Below, in pieces: positions 1,883 to 50,924 of a DNA stretch of 64,000 nt; position 1 is the stretch's first letter, and every line of letters begins with the position of its first letter. Both the position numbers and the translations under genes were made by a program. The notes under the pieces are model-generated. The model saw nothing but the letters and a program-made list of their open reading frames with translations. It was not told the origin of the DNA and searched no databases. Where the stretch lies: sequence record NC_048731.1. One strand, written 5' to 3'. The DNA is from Escherichia phage fp01.

Positions 1883-1911
1883 ATTATAGCAAGAAAAGAG
1901 AGGTTTAGCAA
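1883..1911 (-). promoter_or_regulatory. T5-type early promoter (-10 TATAAT / -35 TTGCTA, 17-bp spacer), minus strand
   Basis: plus-strand attata 1883-1888 and tagcaa 1906-1911; conserved flanking aatttataaa block. Confidence 0.55.
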
Positions 1912-1928
1912 ATGAATTATTTCAGAAT

Positions 1929-2276
1929 TTAGTCATAGCACCACCATAACCCACGTTTACGCATGTCATGATCGCGATTATAATCATAATTTTCTGGATC
2001 TTTCATCACGCGGTGGAGTTCTTGACGATTCCCCTGACGAACCATTTTATTAGAATGCCACTTAACATTCTTACTAATGGAATTCCAGTTATAACCATCC
2101 TTTTTCTCATTACGAATAGTTGCTTCCTTCATTTCTTTTTTGATGTCATCCCAGGATTTGGCATAAATAACACGAATCCAGTAGCCATTTTCTTTGAGGA
2201 AAGAATATTCTTGAGAGAATTGTTCTTTAGACTTCCACCACTGATCACCAGATTGTTTACGATAAGTACGGCTCAT
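1929..2276 (-). CDS. hypothetical protein (Trp/Tyr-rich)
   Basis: ORF track 115 aa. Confidence 0.5.
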   Translation of the reverse strand: MSRTYRKQSGDQWWKSKEQFSQEYSFLKENGYWIRVIYAKSWDDIKKEMKEATIRNEKKDGYNWNSISKNVKWHSNKMVRQGNRQELHRVMKDPENYDYNRDHDMRKRGLWWCYD

Positions 2277-2353
2277 ATTACCTCCATTAAGTCTTTTAAA
2301 TTAACCTAATGTGGATGAATTTTATTACACATATATTATGTACCTTTATACAG

Positions 2354-2386
2354 AAAAACCCCAGACTACTTATTCAATAGCTGGGG
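2354..2386 (-). terminator. rho-independent terminator (minus strand)
   Basis: hairpin CCCCAG...CTGGGG (2359-2386) with A-run 2354-2358 on plus = U-run after the hairpin on the minus transcript. Confidence 0.5.
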
Positions 2387-2397
2387 TTTGTTATTAA

Positions 2398-3677: not shown

Positions 3678-3905
3678 TTAACATTTTACAGCAGAACGTT
3701 TGCCATTTCTGGGTGCACCTGGAAGTCGTGCACGTTCTGACATTCTTCGCTTAATCTTTGAGATATTTTCTAGTGTTTGTTCTTCAGGCTTAATACCTGA
3801 AACACTACACCACTGATTACCATCCCATGCGGTAATGATCATAACACCATTACTCATGATCTTTTCTGTAAAAGTAATCCTCATTATAGCAACTCGTCTA
3901 AGCAA
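3678..3905 (-). CDS. hypothetical protein
   Basis: ORF track 75 aa. Confidence 0.4.
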   Translation of the reverse strand: MLRRVAIMRITFTEKIMSNGVMIITAWDGNQWCSVSGIKPEEQTLENISKIKRRMSERARLPGAPRNGKRSAVKC

Positions 3906-4177
3906 GAGGTATATTTAAGTTTACCATCTTTATCTACTTTGATTTCGACTTCCACTCGTGGTACTTGACGAACTACACCATGAATCATCTTATAGTTAAT
4001 AGACTTAGATGGTTCATAATCTTTTGGAAAGACTTGCTTAACCGTTACTACCTTGTACCCATCACGCGGTGTTAGTACAACTACTTGATCACCTTCTTTG
4101 ATTTTCCAAGAGCCAGGAAATTCATAAGTATAGCGTTGACCACCAGTTTGGAACACAACAGAAAGATAACGTTTCAT
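3884..4177 (-). CDS. hypothetical protein
   Basis: ORF track 97 aa; lies directly downstream of promoter 4208-4236. Confidence 0.5.
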   Translation of the reverse strand: MKRYLSVVFQTGGQRYTYEFPGSWKIKEGDQVVVLTPRDGYKVVTVKQVFPKDYEPSKSINYKMIHGVVRQVPRVEVEIKVDKDGKLKYTSCLDELL

Positions 4178-4207: not shown

Positions 4208-4236
4208 ATTATAGCAATAAATAAGAGAGAAAGCAA
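4208..4236 (-). promoter_or_regulatory. T5-type early promoter (minus strand)
   Basis: plus attata 4208-4213, aagcaa 4231-4236, 17-bp spacer; flanking aatttatataaat block. Confidence 0.55.
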
Positions 4237-7079: not shown

Positions 7080-7411
7080 AAATTCTTTAGTTTACTAAGG
7101 CTATTAGCTCGGCGTAACTACAGCACCTTCGCTTCGAGCGGAAGGAACTGCGTCATCTCGCAAACCCAATACACTATTCAGTTGCCACTGAATCTAGTGG
7201 ACTAATCTAGAACTTCTCCCGAATCGTAGGGATCGTGCTTTTTGGCAGCCAGTCCTAGGTCGAGCTAATACCTTAGTGAACTAAATTGATGGATACCAGA
7301 CTAATTTTGCTACGACGTTTATCCTGAGGATCTCTTTTTCGGTAGCTCTGCTAGTGTAGACGTCATACACCTGATATCTAGGCAGCTATTTTCGCATCAA
7401 TTTATATAAAT

Positions 7412-7440
7412 ATTATAACAAGAAATTAAGCATCAAGCAA
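7412..7440 (-). promoter_or_regulatory. T5-type early promoter (minus strand) firing into the ORF-free region 7080-7405
   Basis: plus attata 7412-7417, aagcaa 7435-7440, 17-bp spacer; flanking caatttatataaatatt block. Confidence 0.55.
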
Positions 7441-7810: not shown

Positions 7811-7886
7811 TGGTCAGTGCGGCAGGACTCGAACCTGCGACCCGAAGCATCCAAGGCTCCCACGCTACCAACTGCGCTACGCACTG
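7811..7886 (-). tRNA. tRNA-Pro (anticodon TGG)
   Basis: acceptor CAGTGCG/CGCACTG, D-arm GCGC-AGTTGGTA-GCGT, anticodon loop CTTGGAT, T-arm GCAGG-TTCGAGT-CCTGC, CCA encoded. Confidence 0.75.
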
Positions 7887-7917
7887 TTAATTTTTGTTAA
7901 CTCACTTTATAAAATAC

Positions 7918-7946
7918 ATTATACAGATAATTAAGCAGAATAGCAA
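7918..7946 (-). promoter_or_regulatory. T5-type early promoter (minus strand) upstream of tRNA-Pro/tRNA-Met
   Basis: plus attata 7918-7923, tagcaa 7941-7946, 17-bp spacer. Confidence 0.5.
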
Positions 7947-9703: not shown

Positions 9704-9732
9704 ATTATACAGAACTTTTGGAAACTAAGCAA
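9704..9732 (-). promoter_or_regulatory. T5-type early promoter (minus strand)
   Basis: plus attata 9704-9709, aagcaa 9727-9732, 17-bp spacer; overlaps the 3' end of ORF 9725-10012. Confidence 0.45.
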
Positions 9733-10350: not shown

Positions 10351-10482
10351 CATATTTAGAAGTATTCAAAAAATTCTAATTTAAACACTTTTAAATATGT
10401 TTCCAAATTAGATAACTATTATACCAAGTTTTAAGGCACTGAGCAAGTCAAATTTTAAAGAACTTGCTCAGTGCTGTATTAG

Positions 10483-10758
10483 TTAGTCGAACTTAGGAGT
10501 GACAGTTAAGGAGAATGGAAGTTCGAAAACTTCTTCACCCTCATCACTAACAGTAATTACACGACCTTTAAGTTCAGACATTGAAATATCAATATCAGCT
10601 TTTGCATCCGGAGCCATGCCAGCTTCAACACATTTAGCTTTAATTTCCGGCAGAAGTTCTACATCGTAGAAATAAAGCCATTCAATCTCACCTTCCCAGC
10701 CTTCCCAGGATTTACAGATTGCACTTTCAATACCAGCTGCTATAACACGATTTTGCAT
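10483..10758 (-). CDS. hypothetical protein
   Basis: ORF track 91 aa. Confidence 0.5.
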   Translation of the reverse strand: MQNRVIAAGIESAICKSWEGWEGEIEWLYFYDVELLPEIKAKCVEAGMAPDAKADIDISMSELKGRVITVSDEGEEVFELPFSLTVTPKFD

Positions 10759-10848
10759 TCGTTAACTCCTTCATCAATTTATATAACTATTATATCAGAA
10801 ATTTAAAGCAAAAGGCAAGTACATTTTTAAAAATTCTATTTGGAGGAG

Positions 10849-11810: not shown

Positions 11811-11888
11811 TGGTGGCTCCCCGAGGATTCGAACCTACGTACCTTCCGGTTATGAGCCGGGTGCTCATACCATATGAGCTTGAGAACC
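11811..11888 (-). tRNA. tRNA, anticodon CAT (Met family)
   Basis: acceptor GGTTCTC/GGGAGCC, anticodon stem CCGG/CCGG with loop CTCATAA, T-loop TTCGAAT, CCA encoded; third CAT tRNA in the array. Confidence 0.6.
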
Positions 11889-11983: not shown

Positions 11984-12004
11984 GAGTTTATAAGATATAT
12001 TATA

Positions 12005-12574
12005 TTAGAAATTTAGCTTCATAGCAAGAAAATTTTTCAAGTTTTCGGTAGACATCTCATCCACATCTACGGGAGAAACAAAGCCGTTTAATTTTCTAGC
12101 AAATTTTTCACCCGCAGGATCATTATCCCCGACAGCTACCAATTTAAAGGGTAGTAATTTCAGTTGCTTTAATAACGCTTTTCCTGGAGAAGAACCCAAC
12201 ATTGCTAGGGCTGGATAACCAGCATTATGTAATGCAACTGCCTTAAATACAGATTCAGCAATCAATACTACTTTTTCATCTCCATTGAGAGTTTCTAGTC
12301 CCCATACACACTGTGTAGTGGAGTAGGTAAAATATTTAGCCTCAAAAGGGCACTTACCATGCCCTTTTGGAGCAGAAGGATTATACGTCTGATAGCCCCG
12401 CAACATCCCAGAGAAGTCATACAATGGGACTGTTAGCCATCCTTCCGGACTTAACCAGCAATGATATTTATCTGTATCAAATCCTCTAGATAAGAGGTGC
12501 TGTGTTAGCTCATCAACATTCATATCTGGTTCCTCTCTCAAATTTATAGATATATTATACAGAGAATTTAGCAT
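12005..12574 (-). CDS. hypothetical protein with Toprim-like acidic motif (LVAVGDNDPAGEKFA)
   Basis: ORF track 189 aa; DxD-containing motif resembles Toprim domains; promoter 12554-12582 immediately upstream. Confidence 0.5.
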   Translation of the reverse strand: MLNSLYNISINLREEPDMNVDELTQHLLSRGFDTDKYHCWLSPEGWLTVPLYDFSGMLRGYQTYNPSAPKGHGKCPFEAKYFTYSTTQCVWGLETLNGDEKVVLIAESVFKAVALHNAGYPALAMLGSSPGKALLKQLKLLPFKLVAVGDNDPAGEKFARKLNGFVSPVDVDEMSTENLKNFLAMKLNF

Positions 12575-12582
12575 TCAAGCAA
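12554..12582 (-). promoter_or_regulatory. T5-type early promoter (minus strand)
   Basis: plus attata 12554-12559, aagcaa 12577-12582, 17-bp spacer. Confidence 0.5.
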
Positions 12583-14479: not shown

Positions 14480-14510
14480 AAAAGCCCGCGCTCTCGGAGG
14501 AAACGCGGGC
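14480..14510 (-). terminator. rho-independent terminator (minus strand) after the SPFH gene
   Basis: hairpin GCCCGCGCTCTCGGAGGAAACGCGGGC with A-run 14480-14483 on plus = U-run on the minus transcript. Confidence 0.55.
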
Positions 14511-14535
14511 TTGGTTCGAAGATTACGTGTAACTA

Positions 14536-33650: not shown

Positions 33651-33652
33651 AT

Positions 33653-34081: not shown

Positions 34082-34090
34082 GGAGGCAAA

Positions 34091-38278: not shown

Positions 38279-38286
38279 AAATTTAT

Positions 38287-38315
38287 TTGCATAGTGCAAA
38301 AAATTTCTGTATAAT
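38287..38315 (+). promoter_or_regulatory. T5-type early promoter (plus strand)
   Basis: TTGCAT 38287-38292, TATAAT 38310-38315; downstream AGATTCATAAATTTGAGAGAGGAG block. Confidence 0.55.
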
Positions 38316-38346
38316 AGATTCATAAATTTGAGAGAGGAGTTTAAAT

Positions 38347-39051
38347 ATGGCTGGTTCTCGTAGAAAGAAACATATCCATGAAATCCCTGATGAAGTCTTT
38401 AAAAAGGTTATAGAGCATCTGGGGAACGGTGGTACTAAGAAAGCAGCATGTGAAATGCTCGGCGTATCATCTAATCCAACTATGGAAAGGATGATTGAAG
38501 AATGGCAAGACCGCCAGATTCAAGTTGCCGAAATGAAGAAAAAGAAACGTGGCACACTTATTGAAGGCATCGAGCTAGCTAACGTTATTGAGCAGTATTT
38601 GTCTGGTGATTCTTTTGAAGAGATTGCCGATCGTAATTATCGCTCTGTAGCAATGGTTAAATCTGTTCTGGAACGATATGGTGCTCTACTTCGTTTGAAC
38701 GATATTGTAGATCCATTGAATCCTCCGATTATTCCTGATGATGCTGTAGCAGAAGAATTTGCAGTTGGTGAGCTTGTTTGGGTTCCTGGATACCAGTGTA
38801 TCGGTGAAATCAAAAAAGCAATGGATAATCCTGTTGGTTGCTACCGTGTATGGCTTCTATCAGAAGGCAAACAACAGAACGTCCATTATATGAATTACGA
38901 GCTGGCCTCTGTTAAACATCTGGAAAAGCTAGGGGTTGACGTAAAGTCTCTGGGATATAAATGGACTCGTGAAGAAATTATTACGTTGATTAACGAAGCT
39001 GTTAAGGCTGCCCTGAAACTTGATAAAGAAAAAGGAAAACGCCGTGAGTAA
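38347..39051 (+). CDS. putative DNA-binding protein with N-terminal HTH
   Basis: 234 aa; TKKAACEMLGVSSNPTMERMIEEW helix-turn-helix-like segment. Confidence 0.5.
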   Translation: MAGSRRKKHIHEIPDEVFKKVIEHLGNGGTKKAACEMLGVSSNPTMERMIEEWQDRQIQVAEMKKKKRGTLIEGIELANVIEQYLSGDSFEEIADRNYRSVAMVKSVLERYGALLRLNDIVDPLNPPIIPDDAVAEEFAVGELVWVPGYQCIGEIKKAMDNPVGCYRVWLLSEGKQQNVHYMNYELASVKHLEKLGVDVKSLGYKWTREEIITLINEAVKAALKLDKEKGKRRE

Positions 39052-39295
39052 GCTAACTGATTTGCTTAAAGATGGGGAAGTAAAAACTCTGTACCGTAGA
39101 AGCTGGGATAATGATAATAATGGCTTAGTATTACTAACTCTAGATGCTGATTTGGATGTAGTTACCCAACATACCTGGGTAGCTGGTAACTATCCGTATA
39201 GCGAGGTTGTAGCATTAACAGTATGCGAAGCTATTGCGGACGATTGGGAGGTTTCCAGCATCGATGATATGCTCGCTGTTGGCCTAGTGGAGTAA
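39020..39295 (+). CDS. hypothetical protein
   Basis: ORF track 91 aa. Confidence 0.4.
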   Translation: MIKKKENAVSKLTDLLKDGEVKTLYRRSWDNDNNGLVLLTLDADLDVVTQHTWVAGNYPYSEVVALTVCEAIADDWEVSSIDDMLAVGLVE

Positions 39296-39312
39296 CTACT
39301 GAAAAATTTCAG

Positions 39313-39341
39313 TTGCTTAATCCTATAATTCTTGATATAAT
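39313..39341 (+). promoter_or_regulatory. T5-type early promoter (plus strand)
   Basis: TTGCTT 39313-39318, TATAAT 39336-39341, 17-bp spacer. Confidence 0.5.
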
Positions 39342-39398
39342 ATTCTCATAGTTTGAAAGAACTATTCTGTTTAATTCTTAATTAAGGAAATATAAAAT

Positions 39399-39809
39399 AT
39401 GACTACTCCAACTCAGTGGACTGATGAACTGTTCGAAAAAATGTCTTCCGAATACGTTGCTCGTATGGAGCAATTCCCAGAGGATGAACGTCCGGGTGTT
39501 AGCATGGAAATTGTTAGCGAAATTGCCCAAGAAAATGGTGTAACTCCGAACGGTTTTCGTATGAAGCTGACTAAAGCAGGTTTGTATATCAAGAAAGCTG
39601 CTGGCTCTGCTTCTAAATCTAGCGCATCTACAGGAGAAAAAGCTTCTGGTGGTTCTCGTACTTCCAAAGCCCAAGCTCATGCCGACCTTCGTTCAGCATT
39701 CTCTGATGCTGGCCTAGCACCAGATTTTCTGGATGATGCAATTATCGACAAACTGACCGGTAAAGCGGCTGCTCATCTGGCAGAAGCAATCCGAGCTATC
39801 ACTAAGTAA
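39399..39809 (+). CDS. hypothetical protein
   Basis: ORF track 136 aa; AAGGAAATATAAAAT ATG context. Confidence 0.5.
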   Translation: MTTPTQWTDELFEKMSSEYVARMEQFPEDERPGVSMEIVSEIAQENGVTPNGFRMKLTKAGLYIKKAAGSASKSSASTGEKASGGSRTSKAQAHADLRSAFSDAGLAPDFLDDAIIDKLTGKAAAHLAEAIRAITK

Positions 39810-39823
39810 TAAGGAGATTATAC

Positions 39824-40114
39824 ATGAACAAGCAAGAAATTATCTCCGCATGTGAAGCTCATAACGAGTTCTATCTTCATTACGAGAAATTACGCCAAAA
39901 AGGTACTACGTACCTTCAAGGTACTATGGATTTTTCTGATAAGTACCTTAGTAAACGATTTGCCCAGGAGCGTATTCGTCAACCAAAAGACGACGAGATT
40001 CTAGTATTTAGTCGTACTAATGATAGCTTCCGTTTTATTCCTGTAAATAAGGTGAAACGTATTACTTCATTGTCTAGTGAACTCGATAGAGCTACGCCAG
40101 TAGGCAAAAAATAA
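39824..40114 (+). CDS. hypothetical protein
   Basis: ORF track 96 aa; AAGGAG SD upstream. Confidence 0.45.
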   Translation: MNKQEIISACEAHNEFYLHYEKLRQKGTTYLQGTMDFSDKYLSKRFAQERIRQPKDDEILVFSRTNDSFRFIPVNKVKRITSLSSELDRATPVGKK

Positions 40115-40161
40115 TAAAGAAAAGGAGAGCTTCGGCTCTCCTTTGTTGTATATGGGTTATA

Positions 40162-40827
40162 GTGAAAAAGTTAACAGCAAAGCAAATAAATAAAGAATTA
40201 GAGCCGCGAGGTTTTAGTATAGTAAGTGAGTGGATTAATATAAGGACACCCGCCATATTTAAGTGCTCAAAAGGTCACCAATGGAGGGCATACCTAAACA
40301 ACATAAGAAAAGGTAGTGGTTGTCCACACTGTAGTAATAAAGCTAAGCTTACTATAGAGCAAATAAATCAACAATTAGCCAATAGAGGTATAAAACTTGT
40401 ATCCACGTATATCAATGCCCATAGTCAAGCAGTATTCGAGTGCGAAGAAGGACATAGGTGGACTAGTAGCGTGGATAAGATTAAAAATGCAGGAAGATCT
40501 TGTCCTATCTGTATAGCTACAAGCTATTTGTATATATTTTATAGCCAGCAGCTTGGAACAAAAATAGGAACATCTAAAAGTCCAGAGAGAAGACTTTTAG
40601 AGATCAAAAAAGATTCTAATCTAGAGGACTTGAGTGCATATGGAGTATACTCTTGTGAGGGGTCAGCATATAATCTAGAAAATAAAGCACATAGATTCTT
40701 TAGTGCTACACAGATATTTACAGAATCAATATTTGACGGTTCTACTGAGTTTTTCAATATTCAACCAGAGGAGGCAGAGGAATATCTCCTAAGTCAGGGA
40801 GCAATAAAATGTCAGGAGATAATGTAA
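40162..40827 (+). CDS. putative endonuclease with tandem zinc-ribbon repeats and GIY-YIG-like segment (homing-endonuclease-like)
   Basis: 221 aa; duplicated CSKGHQW...CPHC / CEEGHRW...CPIC modules, then YLYIFYSQQLGTKIGTSKSPERRLLEI; GTG start in ORF track. Confidence 0.45.
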   Translation: MKKLTAKQINKELEPRGFSIVSEWINIRTPAIFKCSKGHQWRAYLNNIRKGSGCPHCSNKAKLTIEQINQQLANRGIKLVSTYINAHSQAVFECEEGHRWTSSVDKIKNAGRSCPICIATSYLYIFYSQQLGTKIGTSKSPERRLLEIKKDSNLEDLSAYGVYSCEGSAYNLENKAHRFFSATQIFTESIFDGSTEFFNIQPEEAEEYLLSQGAIKCQEIM

Positions 40828-41120
40828 ATCAGGATTATGTTGGACATGTAGATGATCAGTCCATAGTTATCTGGGAAAGAGAAGATGGCCAACAGGTTAG
40901 GCTAACTGTATCTGAGTTTAGGGGGAATCTATACTTAGGAATTAGGTACTGGCTCCAAGATATAGAAGGTGAATGGTTTCCAACAAAAAGTGGATTCAGT
41001 ATGCCCTACACTCTAGAAACAACATCTCATTTATTTAAGGCATTTACTAAAATATTATCTAATAGTGAGGTTTTATTAGAAGTAGAAAAAGAAGCTAAAC
41101 GCCTGGCGGAAAAAGAATAA
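40809..41120 (+). CDS. PC4/Sub1-like ssDNA-binding domain protein
   Basis: 103 aa; QVRLTVSEFRGNLYLGIRYW...WFPTKSGFSMP resembles PC4-family domains. Confidence 0.45.
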   Translation: MSGDNVNQDYVGHVDDQSIVIWEREDGQQVRLTVSEFRGNLYLGIRYWLQDIEGEWFPTKSGFSMPYTLETTSHLFKAFTKILSNSEVLLEVEKEAKRLAEKE

Positions 41121-41126
41121 ATGTAT

Positions 41127-41155
41127 TTGCTTTCAACTCAGTTTTGTTATATAAT
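41127..41155 (+). promoter_or_regulatory. T5-type early promoter (plus strand) for ligase A
   Basis: TTGCTT 41127-41132, TATAAT 41150-41155; downstream ATTTATATAAATTGATGAGAG block. Confidence 0.55.
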
Positions 41156-41186
41156 ATTTATATAAATTGATGAGAGATACAAATAA

Positions 41187-42158
41187 ATGACTAATGTAAA
41201 AGACTTTATTAAACGTTGTCAAGAAGCATATTACCAGGGAATGTCTTTAATCTCTGACGAAGAATATGATCGTCTGATTAAAAGATTTCCGTTAGAAGAA
41301 GAGATCGGGCCTAAGGGTGATATTCCACATCTGTATCGTATGTATTCTTTACAGAAAGTTTATTATAATCGTGGAGATAAACCCCCATTTAACCCGTTAG
41401 GTCAGGTAGAAACTGATAAGTTAGATGGTTGTGCGATTTCTCTGTTATATATTAATGGCGAATTTGTTCAAGCACTAACTCGTGGCAATGGTATTCTAGG
41501 GAATGATGTCACAAGCAACGTAAGATTGCTGAACATCCCCAAAAAGATTTCCCAAAAAGTACCTACTCAAATCACTGGTGAAGTTCTAATTACAAAAGAA
41601 GTAGAAAATAAACGTAACTTTGCCTCTGGTGCTATTAACCTCAAAGATAGCGATGATTTCGTACAACGTATCGGAGAAGGTGGTTTAATCTTCGTTGCAT
41701 ATGGTATCCAGTGTTCTGCTGAATCTGTAGGTATTACAGAAACGTATTTAAAAGATATGCTTTGGCTAGAGAATGAGAACTTCTTAACAGTTGTTAATGT
41801 GCGTTCCTTCTTTAAATGGATTCCGACGGATGGTAAAGTTGTTCGTATTAATGACAACAACAAATTCTTCCGAGAAGGCTGGACTAATAAATTCCCTCGT
41901 GGAGCATTCGCTATTAAAGAGGATGAAGAAGGCGAGATTACAACTCTTACTAAAGTTGAATGGCAGGTAGGGGCTTCTGGTAAAGTAACTCCAGTTGGTT
42001 ATTTCGAACCGGTAATTATTGATGATGCTACAATTGTTAAGGCGACTCTTAATAACGTTGATTATATTAACTCTCTTGATCTAGAGATCGGTTGCCAGAT
42101 TCGAGTGATTCGTGCCGGTGGTGTAATCCCGTGCATAGTAGAGCGAGTATACGATTAA
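41187..42158 (+). CDS. NAD-dependent DNA ligase, adenylation/OB-fold subunit (ligase part A)
   Basis: 323 aa; adenylation motif KLDGCAI with TRGNG block. Confidence 0.8.
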   Translation: MTNVKDFIKRCQEAYYQGMSLISDEEYDRLIKRFPLEEEIGPKGDIPHLYRMYSLQKVYYNRGDKPPFNPLGQVETDKLDGCAISLLYINGEFVQALTRGNGILGNDVTSNVRLLNIPKKISQKVPTQITGEVLITKEVENKRNFASGAINLKDSDDFVQRIGEGGLIFVAYGIQCSAESVGITETYLKDMLWLENENFLTVVNVRSFFKWIPTDGKVVRINDNNKFFREGWTNKFPRGAFAIKEDEEGEITTLTKVEWQVGASGKVTPVGYFEPVIIDDATIVKATLNNVDYINSLDLEIGCQIRVIRAGGVIPCIVERVYD

Positions 42159-42301
42159 TACATAACCCTTTGCTACCCATCCACCATATCGGAATTATAA
42201 AGTGGTTATTGACATTTTCGCCGCTTAGGTATATACTATTATCATTCAGTTGAGGGATAGAAAGTTATGGCGAGGGTAAGCAAAGTTAGTTAAAATTGTA
42301 G

Positions 42302-42330
42302 TTGCTAAATGCTTAAATACTTGCTATAAT
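42302..42330 (+). promoter_or_regulatory. T5-type early promoter (plus strand) in the ligase A/B spacer
   Basis: TTGCTA 42302-42307, TATAAT 42325-42330; downstream ATTTATATAAATTGATAAGGAAG block. Confidence 0.55.
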
Positions 42331-42357
42331 ATTTATATAAATTGATAAGGAAGAAAT

Positions 42358-43140
42358 TTGATGAAAATCGAAATTCCAACACAATGTCCCTCTTGTGGTT
42401 CTAAGCTAGATCTTGTCAACGGACAATTATTCTGTCGGAATAAGTCCAACTGTCCAGCGCAATCAAGTAAGTTAATTGAGAACTTCTGTACAAAAATGAA
42501 GTTAAAGGGCTTTGGCCCAAAAACTATTGAGAAGCTGGAGCTGACGAAGATTTCAGAACTATTTTACCTAACCGAAGAAGATTTGGTTAGAGCCGTGGGT
42601 AGCAAGGTTGCCGCTAAGTTAATTAGCGAATTAAATACTAAAGTTCGCGGAGACATTGACTTTGGTTCAGTTCTCGGTTCTTTAGGAATCCCTCTAATAG
42701 GAGAGGTTGCAGCAAAGAAATTATCCCAAAATTGCACTAGCTTCCACGATGTGAAGGCTGACGGCAAGGCTGGAGAAAATTATAAAGCCTGGCTAAATTC
42801 CCCACAAGGCAGGGATGTTATCGAACTACCGTGGAAATTTTCAACCGGTATTAAGGGCACTAAAGCTAATATCATCATTACAGATGAATTAGTTGCCCAG
42901 CCAAATGGAATCGCGGTATGTATTACCGGATCTTTGCAAGATTTTGCAAATAGAACGGATGCAACAAACTATTTAGAAGGTCTAGGATATACGGTTAAGA
43001 AATCCGTTACCAAAGACGTCAAATACCTGATCTGTGAGGATGAATCAAAACGTTCTTCCTCATCTTATAAGAAAGCCGAAACGAATGGGATAGAAATCCT
43101 GTCGATTAAAGAACTATTGGAGAAAAATAATAATGTCTAA
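42358..43140 (+). CDS. NAD-dependent DNA ligase, Zn-finger/HhH/BRCT subunit (ligase part B)
   Basis: 260 aa; CPSCGSKLDLVNGQLFCRNKSNCPAQ zinc finger; C-terminal BRCT-like region. Confidence 0.8.
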   Translation: MMKIEIPTQCPSCGSKLDLVNGQLFCRNKSNCPAQSSKLIENFCTKMKLKGFGPKTIEKLELTKISELFYLTEEDLVRAVGSKVAAKLISELNTKVRGDIDFGSVLGSLGIPLIGEVAAKKLSQNCTSFHDVKADGKAGENYKAWLNSPQGRDVIELPWKFSTGIKGTKANIIITDELVAQPNGIAVCITGSLQDFANRTDATNYLEGLGYTVKKSVTKDVKYLICEDESKRSSSSYKKAETNGIEILSIKELLEKNNNV

Positions 43141-43900
43141 ACTGAACTGGAACGTAGAAGGTGTAACCGAGTCTCTGAAAGCAAAAGCCACTGCTCTGGG
43201 TGTTTCTGTAATCTCTCAAGAACAAGTAGCTGCTATCGCTGCTGAACTGGCTGCTGAAACTGGCAAAGATGTTACTGCCCGCTCTGTTGGCTCTAAACTG
43301 CGTAAAGAAGGTTTTGAAGTACAGAAAGCTAACGAAGTACAGAAATCCCCGTGGACTCCTGAGCAGGAAGCTGAACTGGTTGATTTCCTGAACGCTCATG
43401 CTGGTCAGTATACCTATGCTGAAATCGCTGCTGCTGTAGCTGGTGGCCAGTTCGGTGCTAAACAGGTACAGGGTAAGATTCTGAGCCTGGAAATGACCGC
43501 TTCTGTTAAGCCAACCGAAAAAGCTGCTGCTGTTCGTTCCTTCACTCCGGATGAAGAAACTGATTTTGTTAATCAGGTTGTTGCTGGTGCTACTATTGAA
43601 GCTATCGCTGCTCACTTCGGTCGTAATATCAAGCAGATCCGTGGTAAAGCTCTGAGCCTGCTTCGTGAAGGTCGTATCGCGGCTATGCCGGTACAGGAAA
43701 CTTCAAGTGCTAAAACTCGTGAAGATCTGTTAGAAGGTCTGGATCTGGTTAACATGACTGTTGCTGAGATCGCTGAGAAAACTGGTAAATCTGAGCGCGG
43801 TGTTAAATCTATGCTGTCTCGTCGTGGTCTGGTTGCTAAGGACTATGATGGTGCCGCTAAGCGTGCTAAACTGGATGCAAAAGCTGCGGCTGTTGAATAA
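43133..43900 (+). CDS. abundant-type repeat protein (four ~55-aa HTH-like repeats), E. coli-optimal codon usage
   Basis: 255 aa; repeated ...EIA...G......K.LSL... modules; strong CTG/GCT/CGT/GGT codon preference unlike neighbouring genes. Confidence 0.6.
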   Translation: MSKLNWNVEGVTESLKAKATALGVSVISQEQVAAIAAELAAETGKDVTARSVGSKLRKEGFEVQKANEVQKSPWTPEQEAELVDFLNAHAGQYTYAEIAAAVAGGQFGAKQVQGKILSLEMTASVKPTEKAAAVRSFTPDEETDFVNQVVAGATIEAIAAHFGRNIKQIRGKALSLLREGRIAAMPVQETSSAKTREDLLEGLDLVNMTVAEIAEKTGKSERGVKSMLSRRGLVAKDYDGAAKRAKLDAKAAAVE

Positions 43901-43917
43901 TCTGGTAAATTAAACCT

Positions 43918-43950
43918 AAGGGGAGGGGGCTATGCTCCTTCCCCTTTTTG
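43918..43950 (+). terminator. terminator-like hairpin plus T-run after the repeat protein gene
   Basis: AAGGGGAGGGGG...CTCCTTCCCC hairpin followed by TTTTTG. Confidence 0.45.
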
Positions 43951-43982
43951 CATTTAGAAGGCACGAAAGCGTGCAAAGGAGA

Positions 43983-45455
43983 ATGACCTTGTTTAACGTG
44001 CAAGCTGTAGTGTTGAAGATGCTTCTAGCTTCCGAACAGAAGCAAATAGCATTGGAAACATTCTCAAAACTGCATAAAGATCATTTTAATGACGCTTTCT
44101 CCTCAATTTACCAAGCCGTCCAGAATTATTATAAAAAATATAACACAATGCCGTCCATTGACGCACTTATGCTTGAAGCTAATAGGAACGCCCGCCTTTC
44201 TCAAGCTCTAGTCGTCTTAGCTAACACTCAAATTCCAGAAGTGAGCATGGAACAGGCACTTGAAGTCCTAGAAGCCGAGTATACGCAGGATTTATTCTTG
44301 AAGCTTCTAGAAACAGACGTGCTTCAAGATTTAACAATGCTGGATCAGGGAGAAATTCTCAACCGAGTTGCCTCCCTTCACTTAAAATTAGAAGAGAAAG
44401 TAACGAATACTGGAAAAGTATTCAACGCAGATAACATGCGTATTTTCCAGAGAGAAGAAGATACCAAACTGAACTTAATCGCTCTTGGTATTTGTAATGA
44501 GTTCGACGCTCAAATTGGTTTAGCTCGCACAGAAACGTTACTGCTTGGTGGTTGGCGTGGTACTGGTAAATCCATTATCTGTTCAAACATACAGGTTCAG
44601 CAATATTTGAATGGAGATATTGCTCCATACTTCTCAATTGAGATGAAAGAACATGAAGTATTTAGACGTAATCTAGCCATGTTAGCTGGTGTATCAGCAC
44701 TAGCAATGCGTAATAATACTCTAGAAGGTGCAGCTCTGTTGAGATTAGCCAGAACTAGAGCTAGAATGTTTAATGGTGGTGAAGAGCTTTTCGATAACTT
44801 CGTTAAACAGTATACAATGGCTAAGATGAGTGATTTCTACGATATGGAGAGTAAGCTAATAGAAGGGTATGAACTACATACTCCTATGATTATTGTTTAT
44901 GATCCTGAACTGTCCATTACAACAGTTGACGTAGAATTAAATAAGTTAGTTGCTAGATATGGTGATAAAGTTACAGTAGCTTTACTTGATTATATTAACC
45001 AAACCCGACTTCCAGACTCTAAAACCATTGATATGTATGACTGGAAAGAACAGATGGTTGTTAGCTCGTCTTTCAAATCTATCTGTCAGAAACATAACGT
45101 GGCTGGCGTAGCTCCTTACCAGATCGATCAAGATGGTAGAACACGTATGTCAAAGGGGATTCTTGATTCCGCAGACATGGCTGCTAATCTTAATGCTGCA
45201 AAAGCTGATAATGGTCAAGGTGCTATTATGTTTGACTTCGTTAAGACTCGTTCTTCTGATAGCGTGAAGTTTATGCCTAAAATGAACTGGGAAACCCTGC
45301 GGATGGATAACACTACCAATCTAGCAATGGAAGATATATCTCAAATGGAAGCTGAGTTCGTTATCCCTATTGAGAAGGATAAGCCGGCTCAACCTAAACG
45401 TGCTAAGAAAGACAAAACTGAAAATTCAACAGGTGAACAGGCCAGCGATATATGA
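43983..45455 (+). CDS. DnaB-like replicative helicase
   Basis: ORF track 43932..45455; start moved to ATG 43983 (MTLFNVQ...) after AAGGAGA SD and downstream of the hairpin; Walker A GGWRGTGKS. Confidence 0.75.
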   Translation: MTLFNVQAVVLKMLLASEQKQIALETFSKLHKDHFNDAFSSIYQAVQNYYKKYNTMPSIDALMLEANRNARLSQALVVLANTQIPEVSMEQALEVLEAEYTQDLFLKLLETDVLQDLTMLDQGEILNRVASLHLKLEEKVTNTGKVFNADNMRIFQREEDTKLNLIALGICNEFDAQIGLARTETLLLGGWRGTGKSIICSNIQVQQYLNGDIAPYFSIEMKEHEVFRRNLAMLAGVSALAMRNNTLEGAALLRLARTRARMFNGGEELFDNFVKQYTMAKMSDFYDMESKLIEGYELHTPMIIVYDPELSITTVDVELNKLVARYGDKVTVALLDYINQTRLPDSKTIDMYDWKEQMVVSSSFKSICQKHNVAGVAPYQIDQDGRTRMSKGILDSADMAANLNAAKADNGQGAIMFDFVKTRSSDSVKFMPKMNWETLRMDNTTNLAMEDISQMEAEFVIPIEKDKPAQPKRAKKDKTENSTGEQASDI

Positions 45456-46342
45456 GTAGAATAACAGAACTACTTGATCTGAAAGGCATTGAATATAAAG
45501 ACACAGGTGGGGACATCCTCATCTGTTGTCTCAATCCAGATCATGACGATAAACACCCAAGTTTGCGTATTGATCCTGAAACAGGTATTATGCACTGCTT
45601 GAGTTGTGGCTTCGGTAAAGGTATACCGAGCATTTACCATTATTTTAATGAGACTCAGTACCGACAGTCTCCAAGACTATCGCAGGTACGTAAAAAGATT
45701 TCAGAGATTAGGAATGGATCTACGAATCTTGCAATTCCTGAATCTGCTTACCTTTTCGAAGGTGATTTCCGAGGTATAAGTTCTAAGACCTTGAAGAAAT
45801 ATTTTGCTTTCCAACACCAAGCAGACTGGGAAGGCAGAATTGTATTCCCAATCACAGATGCTGTTGGACGCAATATCCTATTTTTGGGTCGTTCTATAAA
45901 CAGTTCTGCCCCTCCTAAATACTTAGTAAAACCAAAACAAGTTTCACCACCGATTTTCCCTGTACGATATAATACTCCAGTTCTTATTCTAGTTGAAGGT
46001 ATCTTTGATATGCTGAACCTAGAGGATAATGGTATAGACTATGCTTCTTGCTGCTTTGGCACACATCAGTTCACCTCAGATAACATTGCAGATAAGTTCA
46101 GTCCTTATATTATTGCTGGTGTTAAAGTTGTTGTTATCTTACTAGATAATGATGCTTCTGGTAATAAGGCTGCACAAGCATTGGCCAAATTAATTCGTAC
46201 AAAAACGCGTTTAACACCTGTAGTTGCTAACTTTCTTCTACCAGAAGGCAAAGATCCAGGTGACTTAAACAAAGATGAAATTGATATGTTAGCAAAACGT
46301 ATTGAAATTTTAGTTGCTGAATCGCTTAAAGATTTGGTATAA
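45452..46342 (+). CDS. DNA primase (DnaG-like: CHC2 zinc finger plus Toprim)
   Basis: 296 aa; CCLNPDHDDKHPSLRI...HCLSCG zinc finger; Toprim EGIFDMLNL...LLDNDASGNKAA. Confidence 0.85.
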   Translation: MSRITELLDLKGIEYKDTGGDILICCLNPDHDDKHPSLRIDPETGIMHCLSCGFGKGIPSIYHYFNETQYRQSPRLSQVRKKISEIRNGSTNLAIPESAYLFEGDFRGISSKTLKKYFAFQHQADWEGRIVFPITDAVGRNILFLGRSINSSAPPKYLVKPKQVSPPIFPVRYNTPVLILVEGIFDMLNLEDNGIDYASCCFGTHQFTSDNIADKFSPYIIAGVKVVVILLDNDASGNKAAQALAKLIRTKTRLTPVVANFLLPEGKDPGDLNKDEIDMLAKRIEILVAESLKDLV

Positions 46343-46404
46343 TATATTGGTAAGTTAGAGAAGAAACACTGAAGTTATACTTACTTACCAAGAGGAGATT
46401 AAAT

Positions 46405-48972
46405 TTGAAAATCGCAGTAGTTGATAAAGCTCTAAATAACACTCGTTACGATAAACATTTCCAGCTATACGGCGAGGAAGTTGATGTATTCCATATGTGT
46501 AACGAGAAGTTATCTGGTCGTTTGCTTAAAAAGCACATTACTATTGGAACACCAGAAAACCCATTTGATCCGAATGATTATGATTTTGTTATACTAGTAG
46601 GTGCTGAACCTTTCCTGTATTTCGCAGGTAAGAAAGGCATTGGTGACTATACTGGTAAACGTGTAGAGTATAATGGATATGCTAACTGGATTGCGAGTAT
46701 CAGCCCAGCCCAGTTACACTTTAAGCCTGAAATGAAACCAGTTTTCGATGCAACAGTAGAAAATATCCACGATATTATCAATGGTCGTGAGAAGATTGCA
46801 AAAGCTGGTGATTACCGTCCTATTACTGACCCTGATGAGGCGGAAGAATATATCAAGATGGTGTATAATATGGTTATCGGACCTGTCGCATTCGACTCCG
46901 AAACCTCAGCACTATACTGTCGAGATGGTTATCTGCTAGGTGTTTCTATATCTCACCAAGAGTATCAGGGTGTATATATCGATTCTGATTGTCTCACAGA
47001 GGTTGCAGTATATTATCTCCAGAAAATTCTGGATAGTGAAAACCACACTATTGTTTTTCACAACTTGAAGTTTGATATGCACTTTTATAAGTACCATCTG
47101 GGACTTACTTTTGATAAAGCACATAAAGAACGCAGGCTCCATGATACTATGTTGCAGCATTATGTTCTAGATGAGCGTCGTGGTACTCATGGCTTGAAAT
47201 CTCTAGCAATGAAGTATACCGATATGGGTGACTATGACTTTGAACTAGATAAGTTCAAGGAGGATTACTGCAAAGCACATAAAATCAAGAAAGAAGATTT
47301 CACCTATGATTTAATTCCGTTTGATATTATGTGGCCTTACGCTGCGAAAGATACTGATGCCACCCTACGTTTGCACAACTTCTTCTTACCAAAAATTGAG
47401 AAGAATGAAAAACTTTGCAGCCTGTATTATGATGTCCTAATGCCTGGTTGTGTATTTCTCCAGCGTGTTGAGGATCGTGGTGTACCTATTTCTATTGATC
47501 GTTTAAAAGAAGCACAGTACCAGTTAACCCATAATCTGAATAAAGCTCGTGAGAAGCTGTATACTTATCCAGAAGTAGTTCAGCTAGAGAAAGATCAGAA
47601 TGAAGCGTTTAACCCAAACTCTGTTAAACAACTCCGTGTTCTTCTGTTTGACTATGTTGGCTTAACTCCAACAGGTAAATTGACGGATACTGGAGCAGAC
47701 TCTACAGATGCAGAAGCTCTGAACGAATTGTCTACGCAGCATCCAATTGCTAAGACTCTACTAGAGATTCGTAAGCTGACTAAGCTGATCTCTACTTACG
47801 TTGAGAAAATTCTTCTGAGTATTGATGCAGATGGTTGCATTCGTACTGGCTTCCACGAACACATGACTACTTCTGGTCGCCTGAGTTCTTCTGGTAAACT
47901 GAACCTGCAACAGTTACCTCGTGATGAATCTATTATCAAGGGCTGTGTAGTAGCTCCTCCCGGGTATCGTGTAATCGCATGGGACTTAACAACTGCGGAA
48001 GTTTATTATGCTGCTGTTCTATCTGGCGATAGAAATATGCAACAAGTATTTATCAACATGAGAAATGAACCAGATAAATACCCGGACTTCCACTCTAACA
48101 TCGCACACATGGTATTTAAGCTCCAATGCGAACCTCGTGATGTTAAAAAGTTATTCCCAGCTCTGCGTCAAGCAGCTAAAGCAATCACCTTTGGTATTCT
48201 ATATGGTTCTGGCCCAGCTAAAGTAGCTCATTCTGTTAACGAAGCTCTTCTGGAGCAGGCTGCTAAGACAGGCGAACCGTTTGTAGAATGTACGGTTGCA
48301 GATGCTAAAGAGTATATCGAAACTTACTTCGGTCAGTTCCCGCAGCTTAAGCGTTGGATTGATAAGTGCCACGATCAGATCAAGAATCATGGATTTATCT
48401 ATAGTCACTTTGGTCGTAAGCGTCGTCTGCACAATATCCACTCCGAAGACCGTGGTGTTCAGGGTGAGGAAATCCGTTCTGGATTTAACGCAATCATTCA
48501 GTCTGCTTCTTCTGATAGTCTCCTTTTAGGTGCTGTAGATGCAGATAATGAGATCATTTCTCTTGGCCTAGAACAAGAGATGAAGATTGTTATGCTGGTT
48601 CATGACTCCGTAGTTGCTATTGTTCGTGAGGATTTGATCGACCAATACAATGAAATCCTGATTCGTAATATTCAGAAAGACCGTGGTATCAGTATTCCTG
48701 GCTGTCCGATTGGTATTGATTCAGATTCTGAAGCTGGAGGTTCTCGTGACTACTCTTGTGGTAAGATGAAGAAGCAGCATCCATCAATCGCTTGTATTGA
48801 TGATGATGAATATACCCGCTATGTCAAAAGTGTGTTACTTGATGCAGATTTCGAGTATAAGAAACTAGCTGCAATGGATAAAGAGCATCCAGATCACAGC
48901 AAATACAAGGATGATAAGTTTATTGCTGTATGTAAAGATTTGGATAACGTGAGAAGGATTCTCGGTGCTTGA
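46405..48972 (+). CDS. family-A DNA polymerase with 3'-5' exonuclease domain (T5-type Pol)
   Basis: 855 aa; FDSETSAL exo motif, KAITFGILYGSG motif B, LVHDSVV motif C; TTG start after GAGGAG SD. Confidence 0.95.
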   Translation: MKIAVVDKALNNTRYDKHFQLYGEEVDVFHMCNEKLSGRLLKKHITIGTPENPFDPNDYDFVILVGAEPFLYFAGKKGIGDYTGKRVEYNGYANWIASISPAQLHFKPEMKPVFDATVENIHDIINGREKIAKAGDYRPITDPDEAEEYIKMVYNMVIGPVAFDSETSALYCRDGYLLGVSISHQEYQGVYIDSDCLTEVAVYYLQKILDSENHTIVFHNLKFDMHFYKYHLGLTFDKAHKERRLHDTMLQHYVLDERRGTHGLKSLAMKYTDMGDYDFELDKFKEDYCKAHKIKKEDFTYDLIPFDIMWPYAAKDTDATLRLHNFFLPKIEKNEKLCSLYYDVLMPGCVFLQRVEDRGVPISIDRLKEAQYQLTHNLNKAREKLYTYPEVVQLEKDQNEAFNPNSVKQLRVLLFDYVGLTPTGKLTDTGADSTDAEALNELSTQHPIAKTLLEIRKLTKLISTYVEKILLSIDADGCIRTGFHEHMTTSGRLSSSGKLNLQQLPRDESIIKGCVVAPPGYRVIAWDLTTAEVYYAAVLSGDRNMQQVFINMRNEPDKYPDFHSNIAHMVFKLQCEPRDVKKLFPALRQAAKAITFGILYGSGPAKVAHSVNEALLEQAAKTGEPFVECTVADAKEYIETYFGQFPQLKRWIDKCHDQIKNHGFIYSHFGRKRRLHNIHSEDRGVQGEEIRSGFNAIIQSASSDSLLLGAVDADNEIISLGLEQEMKIVMLVHDSVVAIVREDLIDQYNEILIRNIQKDRGISIPGCPIGIDSDSEAGGSRDYSCGKMKKQHPSIACIDDDEYTRYVKSVLLDADFEYKKLAAMDKEHPDHSKYKDDKFIAVCKDLDNVRRILGA

Positions 48973-49462
48973 TTTCAAATTGCCCGTATATGCTTTACGG
49001 GCGTTTGTATCAATTGAGCAAGAGGGTGATTATTCCGTAATTACAACAAGGTATAATAAATATGTGCTAGATAACAGGAAGTTGCCTGGCACGTTTTCTC
49101 AACGTAGGCTTATTCTATTTGAGAAACGGAAAGAATTACCCTACAAGCTCTACCCTATTAGAGGTAGAATATCAATGTTGTCTCAATTAGTTGGGTCAAA
49201 GCGTAGCCAATTTATAGATTCTGATGGAAATCTTATTAACTGGAAGAAAACTACATTCTATGATGTTGTCACCTCTAAAGTTTTGCATTCAGCTAGAATT
49301 TATAATGGAAAATACCAATGCTATGTAGCTAAAGTTCCATACCCATTTGTATTATCCTATGTTCCAGCTTATATAAGCTATATTCTGGTAAATAATAGCC
49401 CTGTTATTTACCAAGTCCATCAAGAGGAGCCTGAAATTCCTAGACTTAGAATAAAATTATGA
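48965..49462 (+). CDS. hypothetical protein
   Basis: ORF track 165 aa. Confidence 0.45.
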   Translation: MLDFKLPVYALRAFVSIEQEGDYSVITTRYNKYVLDNRKLPGTFSQRRLILFEKRKELPYKLYPIRGRISMLSQLVGSKRSQFIDSDGNLINWKKTTFYDVVTSKVLHSARIYNGKYQCYVAKVPYPFVLSYVPAYISYILVNNSPVIYQVHQEEPEIPRLRIKL

Positions 49463-50811
49463 AAGTTGTTATATCTAATAAAGCCTATTTCAAGCCCGAT
49501 GATGAACTTTGGGATTATTGTAGTAAGCAAACCACTTATCACATAGAGACAATGACTAGTAAATACCCTATTATGTATAAGAATAGTGGTGTTGTTGCCA
49601 AAGAGATTAAGTGGATTCCTATCACTCGTCTAGATTTATTAGATGCTAAAGGAGTAAAATACGAATTAGTCGATAAACGCACATTAGCTCCGGCAGATAT
49701 ACCAAAACCTAAGTTCAAGCTGCGTGAAGAAGATCAGCTTCCAATATACGAAGAATGCGATGATACCTGTATTATTAATGGTAAGCCTGGATTTGGTAAA
49801 ACTATCCTAGCCCTTGCACTTGCGTATAAATTTGGCCAAAAAACTCTGGTAATATGTACGAATACATCCATTCGTGAGATGTGGGCAGCAGAAGTTCGTA
49901 AATGGTTTGGGTTTGAACCGGGTATCATAGGTTCTGGGAAATACAATATTGATCCACCAATTGTAGTCAGTAATATTCAAACAGTGAATAAACATGCGAA
50001 TAATCTTTCTAAAGTATTCGGTACTGTTATAGTTGATGAAGTTCACCATTGTGTGGCTACAACTTTCACTAACTTCCTAGAAATATCATGTGCTCGCTAT
50101 AAGATTGGACTATCCGGTACATTAAAAAGAAAAGATGGTCTACAAGTTATGTTCAAAGATTTCTTTGGATATAAGATTTTTAGCCCACCGGTTAATAATA
50201 CTGTTGCACCTACAATCCATAGGTACTCTGTACCTGTTGAGTTATCAGGAAATCAGAATGTGCCATGGGCATTACGTGCTAATGATGTGTACAATCATCC
50301 TGAGTATCGAGAAACTATTATAAACCTAGCACATTTATATGTGAATATGGGGCATAAAGTACTCATTGTAAGCGATAGAACAGAGTTAATCCAAACAGTA
50401 CTAGAAGCTCTTGCACAGCGTGGTGTTACAACTTATGAAATTATAGGGGCAACCCACTTAGATGACCGATTAAAAATCCAGGAAGATATAGCAAAAGGTG
50501 GACCTTGTGTACTTGCAGCAGCTCAGAGTATCTTCTCTGAAGGTATTTCCCTTAATGAGCTATCTTGTTTAATAATGGGAAGTCTTATTAATAATGAATC
50601 TCTCATTGAACAGCTTGCAGGACGTGTTCAACGTATTGTCGATGGTAAACTCGACCCTATTGTTGTAGATCTAATCATGAAAGGTGGTACTGGGCTAAGA
50701 CAGGCTTCTGGACGTATGGCAGTATATCGTAACAACGGGTGGAAAACTATTACCACGACTCCGGAGAAAGCAGTTCAATTAGCTAAAATTGCATTTGGCA
50801 ACAGCTCATAA
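49459..50811 (+). CDS. SF2 DNA helicase (DExH-box)
   Basis: 450 aa; Walker A GKPGFGKT, DExH VIVDEVHH. Confidence 0.85.
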   Translation: MKVVISNKAYFKPDDELWDYCSKQTTYHIETMTSKYPIMYKNSGVVAKEIKWIPITRLDLLDAKGVKYELVDKRTLAPADIPKPKFKLREEDQLPIYEECDDTCIINGKPGFGKTILALALAYKFGQKTLVICTNTSIREMWAAEVRKWFGFEPGIIGSGKYNIDPPIVVSNIQTVNKHANNLSKVFGTVIVDEVHHCVATTFTNFLEISCARYKIGLSGTLKRKDGLQVMFKDFFGYKIFSPPVNNTVAPTIHRYSVPVELSGNQNVPWALRANDVYNHPEYRETIINLAHLYVNMGHKVLIVSDRTELIQTVLEALAQRGVTTYEIIGATHLDDRLKIQEDIAKGGPCVLAAAQSIFSEGISLNELSCLIMGSLINNESLIEQLAGRVQRIVDGKLDPIVVDLIMKGGTGLRQASGRMAVYRNNGWKTITTTPEKAVQLAKIAFGNSS

Positions 50812-50823
50812 ATGATGTATAAT
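50795..50823 (+). promoter_or_regulatory. T5-type promoter (TTGGCA-17-TATAAT) overlapping the helicase stop
   Basis: TTGGCA 50795-50800, TATAAT 50818-50823; downstream ATATATACATAAATTTGAGAGAG block. Confidence 0.5.
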
Positions 50824-50894
50824 ATATACATAAATTTGAGAGAGAAAGTTTCGGATTGATAAGAAAGTCCGAAGCAGAAAAATAAAAATTTTAG

Positions 50895-50924
50895 TTGCTA
50901 AATTCTCTCGAAATCTAGTATAAT
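50895..50924 (+). promoter_or_regulatory. T5-type promoter (TTGCTA-18-TATAAT), second of a tandem pair
   Basis: TTGCTA 50895-50900, TATAAT 50919-50924; downstream ATATACATAAATTCGAGGAG block. Confidence 0.5.

Follow-up and report, generated by a model that had tools for sequence, protein, structure and literature searches.

We analysed a stretch of 64,000 nucleotides (nt) from Escherichia phage fp01 (NC_048731.1), referred to below as the window, for a family of putative promoters that recurs upstream of its early genes. The window has a G+C content of 39% and comes from a T5-like phage (Tequintavirus), which hundreds of relatives match with identities of up to ~97%. It is collinear with the region of the T5 genome (AY543070) from ~24.7 kilobases (kb) to 88.9 kb, with 76-97% identity in the aligned blocks. 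Its genes are directed leftward up to ~29.3 kb and rightward from ~29.4 to 56.7 kb, followed by tail genes on the minus strand, and 23-25 transfer RNA (tRNA) genes are located on the minus strand. This layout matches that of the T5 early region. The sites of the promoter family precede genes for replication and nucleotide metabolism as well as tRNA genes.

Occurrence of the promoter family

Searching the window for TTGCWW-N17-TATAAT with at most one mismatch returned 27 matches, compared with 3.82 +/- 1.89 expected, and none of 100 shuffled sequences reached 27. This bears out the core put forward in the initial annotation, a -35 element TTGC(T/A)(T/A) separated by 17 base pairs (bp) from TATAAT. 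When spacers of 16-18 bp were allowed, the number rose to 35 matches, 28 of which carry conserved flanks and make up the family. The remaining seven (749, 2515, 29877, 36902, 40156, 46774 and 59605) lie within open reading frames (ORFs) or are devoid of the flanking features, and were set aside as chance matches. The family set was curated by orthology to T5 and by a leave-one-out matrix, both described below.

The initial annotation had proposed a single promoter family with about 25 copies on both strands, which agrees well with the 28 curated sites, 19 on the minus strand (1883-29306) and nine on the plus strand (31333-50924). The range it gave, 1883-50924, is exact for the outermost members, the first being 1883-1911 (-) and the last 50895-50924 (+); no convincing further member was found in the window outside this range or with a degenerate -10 element. 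The strand of every family site is that of the local genes.

Three generic sigma-70 consensus scans gave 37, 58 and 68 hits against 51, 57 and 61 in shuffled sequences, showing no enrichment, and the excess is therefore specific to the TTGC-family signature. As the generic scan cannot separate the family, it was dropped as a detector. A loose filter (two mismatches, A/T-rich upstream sequence, block within 13 nt) was likewise rejected, yielding 48 candidates that were mainly noise. The A/T-richness of the window (39% G+C), together with generic sigma-70-like hexamer pairs being as common as in the shuffles, might suggest that the sites arose by chance, or that they form an inert dispersed repeat with no promoter function. 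We give this explanation practically no credence, since none of 100 shuffles reaches the observed counts, the coupling of strand and position to gene starts is perfect, N25 and other promoters in experimental use are among the orthologs of the sites, and promoter positions are syntenic in distant relatives; statistics and orthology already refute it.

The family sites are listed below by the coordinates of the promoter core. "Block" refers to the ATAAATT element downstream of the -10, distances to start codons are counted from the -10, and percentages are identities to the T5 counterpart.

1883-1911 (-): promoter core, TTGCTA/17/TATAAT; block exact; 94% to T5 26722-26796; ATG at 30 nt, ORF 1571-1852
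4208-4236 (-): P11 ortholog, TTGCTT/17/TATAAT; block exact; 98%; ATG at 30 nt, ORF 3884-4177
7412-7440 (-): P13b ortholog; block exact; ORF-free stretch, where T5 annotates the stable RNA 'RNA2H', then tRNA-Ala (332 nt away) and tRNA-Leu
7918-7946 (-): P13a ortholog; ATAAAGT after a 7-nt discriminator; drives tRNA-Pro (31 nt downstream) and tRNA-Met
9704-9732 (-): P14b ortholog; block exact; 98.5%; tRNA-Cys 49 nt after the -10
10418-10446 (-): P14a ortholog, TTGCTC/17/TATAAT; variant block CTAATTT; 98.6%; drives the tRNA-Tyr/Glu/Trp/Phe cluster, with tRNA-Tyr at 67 nt
10789-10818 (-): P15c ortholog, TTGCCT/18/TATAAT; block exact; 98.7%; ATG at 30 nt, ORF 10483-10758
11999-12027 (-): P15b ortholog; ATAAACT, preceded by a 7-nt discriminator; tRNA-Ser begins 15 nt past the -10
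12554-12582 (-): P15a ortholog; block exact; 96%; ATG at 30 nt; by name and position, probably P15A of PMC7472727
16390-16418 (-): P16-17 ortholog, TTGCTA/17/TATACT; block exact; ORF-free stretch, where the stable RNA 'RNAX' is annotated in T5 and an Rfam tRNA-like match lies (16095-16166), then tRNA-Arg
17072-17100 (-): P-D/E33 ortholog; block exact; 94.7%; ATG at 31 nt
17912-17940 (-): family promoter; block TTAAATT; T5 43067-43141; ATG at 30 nt, ORF 17564-17881
19239-19267 (-): family promoter; block exact; T5 44393-44467; ATG at 40 nt
21096-21124 (-): P-H207 ortholog; block exact after a 7-nt discriminator; 100% over 75 nt; ATG at 38 nt
21447-21475 (-): family core with upstream A-tract; no block (ATTGAAA), downstream-block sub-scores about zero or negative; T5 46337-46411; ATG at 27 nt
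22924-22953 (-): family promoter, TTGCTT/18/TATAAT; weak block AATAAGT; T5 46937-47011; ATG at 29 nt
25540-25568 (-): family core, no block; just downstream of the terminator hairpin 25586-25607; T5 50061-50135; ATG at 31 nt, ORF 24363-25508 (381 amino acids), probably nrdB from its position relative to the T5 record
29137-29165 (-): family promoter; block GTAAGTT; 100% to T5 53638-53712; start codon of a PhoH-like gene at 73 nt
29278-29306 (-): TTGCCA/17/TATAAT with upstream A-tract; no block, block scores strongly negative in all three sub-regions and the poorest of the family; in tandem with and upstream of 29137; positional counterpart T5 53776-53850
31333-31361 (+): family promoter; block exact; T5 55708-55782; terminator 31298-31322 directly upstream; ATG at 28 nt
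34744-34772 (+): family promoter, TTGCAT/17/TATAAT; variant block ATTGAAT; T5 58999-59073; terminator 34675-34697 upstream
38287-38315 (+): P-N25 ortholog; -35 TTGCAT; ATG at 31 nt, D2 gene
39313-39341 (+): P-N26 ortholog; variant block ATAGTTT; 97%; ATG at 57 nt, D3 gene
41127-41155 (+): family promoter before ligA; block exact; T5 65284-65358; ATG at 31 nt
42302-42330 (+): P-K28a ortholog before ligB; block exact; 100% over 75 nt; start codon at 27-30 nt
46314-46343 (+): promoter of the DNA polymerase gene, TTGCTG/18/TATAAT; block GTAAGTT; 100% to T5 70987-71061; start codon at 61 nt; by name and position, probably 'Ppol' of PMC7472727
50796-50823 (+): P31A ortholog; -35 TGGCAA (16-bp spacer) or TTGGCA (17 bp); block exact; 100%
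50895-50924 (+): P31B ortholog, TTGCTA/18/TATAAT; block exact; 100%; in tandem with P31A, followed by ORF 51032-51316

The core elements vary little among these sites. The spacer measures 17 bp in 23 of the 28 and 18 bp in four, while P31A can be read with 16 or 17 bp. A -35 element starting with TTGC is found in 27 sites, the exception being P31A (TGGC or TTGG), and a perfect TATAAT in 27, the exception being P16-17 (TATACT).

The downstream block and the upstream tract

Aligning the sites on their -10 element revealed a common layout of TATAAT, A-T-A-T-T-n, ATAAATT and G/T-A-(T)-G-A-G-A-G. The -10 is followed by a discriminator of six A/T nucleotides (ATATTC type), then by ATAAATT and finally by GA(T)GAGAGG, as seen in the window in the forms ...ATATAAATT... 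and ...CATAAATT... The ATAAATT element begins at the seventh nucleotide after the -10, or at the eighth in three sites (P13a, P15b and P-H207). With at most one mismatch, TATAAT-N6-ATAAATT occurs 18 times against 0.62 expected, a count reached by none of 100 shuffles, and 16 of the 18 occurrences coincide with sites of the family. A leave-one-out weight matrix covering the 20 nt 3' of the -10 scored positive in 25 of the 28 sites (median 14.1), compared with a median of -17.2 for the other 66 TATAAT (p = 4e-12), and the sub-score of the discriminator was positive in 27. The three members without the block are 21447, 25540 and 29278.

The conserved downstream block described in the initial annotation is real, being present in 25 of the 28 sites, but the 19-mer in which it had been written, ATTTATAWAATTKAKGAGR, gives only five matches at up to three mismatches because one A is missing from it. 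Its placement "within ~15 nt" of the -10 had to be corrected as well: the block starts directly after the -10, with ATAAATT at the fixed offset given above.

Upstream of the core, a AAAAATTTA tract abuts the -35 element, at positions -10 to -2 from it. With 0.6-1.45 bits per position, this tract is conserved as strongly as the block. Within the spacer, an AAATT tract is found near -20. We do not claim an extended -10 (TGn): the TG that frequently abuts TATAAT (TGTATAAT) is one position off the canonical TGnTATAAT. Homologies outside the -35 and -10 elements, including some around +7, are said to have been noted already by Gentz and Bujard in 1985.

Counterparts in T5 and in distant relatives

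The T5 record AY543070 contains 35 promoter features in the equivalent region, 31 of which have a blastn counterpart in the window. Conversely, 27 of the 28 family sites correspond by blastn to 75-bp 'promoter' features of that record (87-100% identity), and the remaining one, 29278, corresponds by position. Several sites are identical to T5 over 75 nt (P-H207, P-K28a, P31A/B and the pol promoter). The initial annotation had likened the motif to the strong early promoters of T5, with their AT-rich upstream and conserved downstream regions, and both of these regions are indeed present. They have been reported for N25 (PMC12464699) as well as for the T5 early promoters as a class (PMC7472727). 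The early promoters of the two phages have in common the A-tract, the TTGC(T)(W)/17/TATAAT core, the A/T discriminator, ATAAATT at +1 and a purine-rich initial transcribed sequence. They are set apart by point differences only; the -35 element of the N25 ortholog, for instance, is TTGCAT here and TTGCTT in T5. From the -10 through +26 (TATAAT AGATTC ATAAATTTGAGAGAGGAGTT), this ortholog is identical to T5 N25, with 100% identity over feature positions 38-75. The motif is the known early promoter family of T5, already listed in the T5 GenBank record, and is in this sense ordinary.

A difference in context was found at P13a. In T5 (32593-32831, compared with 7886-7946 (-) here), the order is P13a, the small ORF T5.066 and tRNA-Pro, whereas in this phage P13a drives tRNA-Pro directly, because T5.066 is missing. 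Insertions and deletions of this kind make the tRNA region a mosaic, in which the homing-endonuclease genes also differ between this phage and T5.

The region also has promoters outside the family. Four promoters annotated in T5 and present in the window, P10a, P12, the nrdD promoter and P-K28b, resemble the family in being annotated promoters of the same early region but differ from it in their -35 element and block, none of them having a TTGC -35 or ATAAATT. P12 (12680-12754, +), the nrdD promoter and P-K28b (42189-42263, +) carry a TTGACA-type -35, while P10a (2297-2370, -) has neither a TTGC nor a TTGACA -35. The region contains a second promoter type, with a TTGACA -35 and without the ATAAATT block (nrdD, P12 and P-K28b). 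The nrdD promoter (29358-29386, +) is a perfect 12/12 sigma-70 consensus, TTGACA-17-TATAAT, and diverges from the tandem sites 29137 and 29278 (-). In the late tail-gene region, a TATAAT at 59246-59251 (-) is followed 6 nt later by ATAAAAT and lies ~27 nt before ORF 58914-59219, with no recognisable -35; it may be a late-class promoter.

A stretch of ~42 kb around the DNA polymerase gene was compared in four relatives, whose polymerases are 78% (Klebsiella phage VAC35), 71% (Enterobacter phage KKP_3711), 58% (Vibrio phage VPG01) and 49% (Vibrio phage D51) identical. The cassette is present in all four, complete with the upstream A-tract and with ATAAA(T/G)T at 7 nt downstream of TATAAT. Each Vibrio locus contains seven matches to TTGC-N19-TATAAT against 0.16 expected, a count that no shuffle of 100 reaches. 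Furthermore, sites picked in the relatives by their -35 and -10 elements alone outscore the other TATAAT there on the downstream matrix derived from the window (p from 1e-3 to 5e-6). The junctions that carry the cassette in common lie before pol, before ligB, before the D2/helicase gene and after the D10 helicase. The intergenic DNA around the family promoters is otherwise unalignable in the Klebsiella, Enterobacter and Vibrio Demerecviridae. In the literature searched, we found no paper describing this family-wide conservation of the cassette. It is an extension of known facts and not a new kind of element.

Transcription units and the role of the block

In 17 of the 28 sites, a start codon is located 27-40 nt after the -10, behind GAGAGG/AGGAG, which makes the 3' half of the block a Shine-Dalgarno region. 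Another six, P13b, P13a, P14b, P14a, P15b and P16-17, lead straight into tRNA genes or ORF-free stable-RNA stretches and drive them directly, in line with the initial annotation, which had noted sites between tRNA genes. Five of these six RNA-gene promoters keep ATAAATT, exactly in P13b, P14b and P16-17 and with one mismatch and a shift of 1 nt in P13a and P15b, while P14a has a variant. The purine-rich Shine-Dalgarno part is weaker and mostly lost at the six, and positions +8 to +14 score higher at the promoters of coding genes. Since the RNA-gene promoters keep ATAAATT and lose the Shine-Dalgarno part, the 5' half of the block is a transcription-level (DNA) feature and not a translation signal.

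These observations bear on the proposal that the whole block is an RNA-level 5' untranslated region, or ribosome-binding cassette, selected for translation and not for transcription. The 17 start codons behind GAGAGG/AGGAG and the higher scores of the +8 to +14 part at coding-gene promoters are what it would predict, whereas the retention of ATAAATT (+1 to +7) before tRNA and stable-RNA genes, exact in three cases and with one mismatch in two, is not. In addition, transcription itself responds in vitro to changes in the initial transcribed sequence (PMC12464699), and we hold this proposal to be decidedly unlikely.

The initial annotation had further suggested that the promoter positions define transcription units. 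The sites do mark the starts of early units, but promoters alone do not delimit them: only ~9 strong intrinsic terminators (14482-14512, 20237-20252, 25586-25607, 31298-31322, 34675-34697, 40121-40144, 43918-43946, 52088-52107 and 56741-56770) stand against the 28 family promoters, so that many transcripts must be nested and co-terminal. Its idea that the motif pinpoints which ORF-free stretches are transcribed found support at sites that lead into stable RNAs annotated in T5. The ORF-free stretches flagged by the motif are 7080-7411 after P13b ('RNA2H'), 15593-16389 after P16-17 ('RNAX') and a leader after the 34744 promoter. This leader (34780-35272, +; ~490 nt) extends to the gene for a 'replication origin binding protein', and its middle part (34887-35198) gave no megablast alignment to T5. 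As a known or structured RNA, it had no Rfam match, a non-significant fold z-score of -1.67 and only weak repeats. In the Klebsiella, Enterobacter and Vibrio relatives, the origin-binding-protein gene likewise lies behind a comparable non-coding gap.

Within the tRNA region, the Rfam tRNA model detected two loci missed by ARAGORN. One of them, 11814-11888 (-), corresponds to T5 tRNA-Ile2 (CAU). The other, 16095-16166 (-), scored 35.5 bits and lies inside the equivalent of T5 RNAX, downstream of P16-17.

We interpret the 28 sites, with a probability of about 0.93, as early promoters of a T5-like phage that depend on sigma-70 and are used by the unmodified RNA polymerase of the host. For their anatomy, enrichment, orientation, orthology to annotated T5 promoters and family-wide conservation, this interpretation rests on the present analysis, and for sigma-70 dependence, the +1 of N25, the role of the block in promoter escape and the early kinetics of two members, it draws on the literature. 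N25 is a sigma-70 promoter with the layout TTGctt/17 bp/TATAAT and a 6-bp discriminator, and has both a canonical UP element and a 'spacer UP element' centred at -19 (PMC12464699, Hsu & Han 2025). Its open complexes are extremely stable and rate-limited at promoter escape, and its native purine-rich initial transcribed sequence, which sets the escape rate, has been described as 'evolved' to speed escape (PMC12464699). An ATATT discriminator is found in all known T5 early promoters and sets them apart from late ones, and early kinetics have been observed by primer extension for Ppol and P15A of T5 (PMC7472727, Klimuk et al. 2020). The source of the named promoters, Gentz & Bujard 1985, is reference 38 of PMC7472727, and the T5 early promoters have also been a subject of the Hsu laboratory.

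According to the sigma-70 interpretation, ~28 near-identical 'expression cassettes' would recruit host RNA polymerase very efficiently. The A-tract (AAAAATTTA) at the -35 would offer the alpha C-terminal domain a proximal UP-element-like contact. The -35 TTGC(T)(W) would be deliberately non-consensus, and is combined with a 17-bp A/T-rich spacer containing AAATT near -20 and with a perfect TATAAT. Transcription would start at the A of ATAAATT, after the 6-nt A/T discriminator, and the initial transcribed sequence, whose A/T-rich beginning gives way to purines on the non-template strand, would merge from ~+10 into the GAGAGG Shine-Dalgarno sequence. In N25, whose discriminator has 6 bp, +1 falls on the A of ATAAATT, and by alignment the block would thus comprise the initial transcribed sequence and, behind it, the ribosome-binding site. 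All 28 sites would presumably fire in vivo at the aligned +1.

Parts of this arrangement are known from other promoters. The A/T tract directly 5' of the -35 resembles the proximal UP subsite of Escherichia coli UP-element promoters of the rrnB P1 type. The consensus of this subsite is reportedly AAAAAARNR, at -46 to -38, as defined by Estrem and colleagues in 1999. In the rrn P1 promoters, the discriminator is G+C-rich and open complexes are short-lived, whereas the discriminator of the T5 family consists of A/T, and N25 complexes are very stable and limited at escape. Lambda PR and N25 have in common near-consensus -35 and -10 elements separated by 17 bp, an UP element and a 6-bp discriminator (PMC12464699). 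However, lambda PR is a single regulated promoter with operators, whereas the T5 family is a cassette in ~28 copies with a conserved initial transcribed sequence.

Several points weigh against the sigma-70 interpretation in this form. Only 11 of 19 in-vitro promoters of T5 gave primer-extension products in vivo (PMC7472727). In the literature searched, mapped starts cover a minority of the sites in T5, and no genome-wide T5 start-site map or transcriptome was found. Promoter names differ by source, 'P11' being pre-early in PMC7472727 and located in the tRNA region in AY543070. The block is lacking in three members and is consequently not obligatory. Finally, the position-specific conservation of ATAAATT, from phages of Vibrio to those of E. 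coli, exceeds a purely compositional 'escape' requirement.

This last point would suit a model in which the discriminator/+1 block (ATATT...ATAAATT) is mainly a class-specific recognition element for a phage-encoded factor that switches early promoters off at the early-to-late transition, with escape being secondary. Candidates for such a factor are gpT5.026, an RNA-polymerase-binding protein, and the D5 DNA-binding protein. Besides the block being conserved in a position-specific and not merely compositional manner that reaches the Vibrio phages, the model could account for early and late T5 promoters differing mainly in the discriminator and for gpT5.026 weakening the interaction of RNA polymerase with the -5/+2 region (PMC7472727), and D5 is listed in the T5 record as a DNA-binding protein with a part in early-gene shut-off. 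We nevertheless regard it as unlikely. Pure RNA polymerase already shows large effects of the N25 initial transcribed sequence on escape (PMC12464699), gpT5.026 has no strong effect in vitro (PMC7472727), the block is absent from three family members, and its recognition by either candidate is hypothetical. Syntenic promoters from E. coli to Vibrio phages keep ATATTC-ATAAATT, also those that encode no protein downstream. Beyond being an escape sequence, it could serve the whole family as a recognition element through which a conserved phage factor, bound to RNA polymerase or to DNA, times early shut-off; we consider this a shade less likely still.

For ~40 years, the T5 early promoters, N25 above all, have served as model strong promoters and as parts of cloning vectors. 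What is added here is modest: Demerecviridae of different hosts have retained the entire cassette together with its +1 block, in sequence as well as in position, and the block is conserved at the promoters of tRNA genes too. Escape is the documented function of the block, and the conservation of the cassette across hosts leaves room for a regulatory role beyond escape. For annotation, the motif provides a reliable marker of the starts of early transcription units in T5-like phages, and it flags ORF-free stable RNAs.

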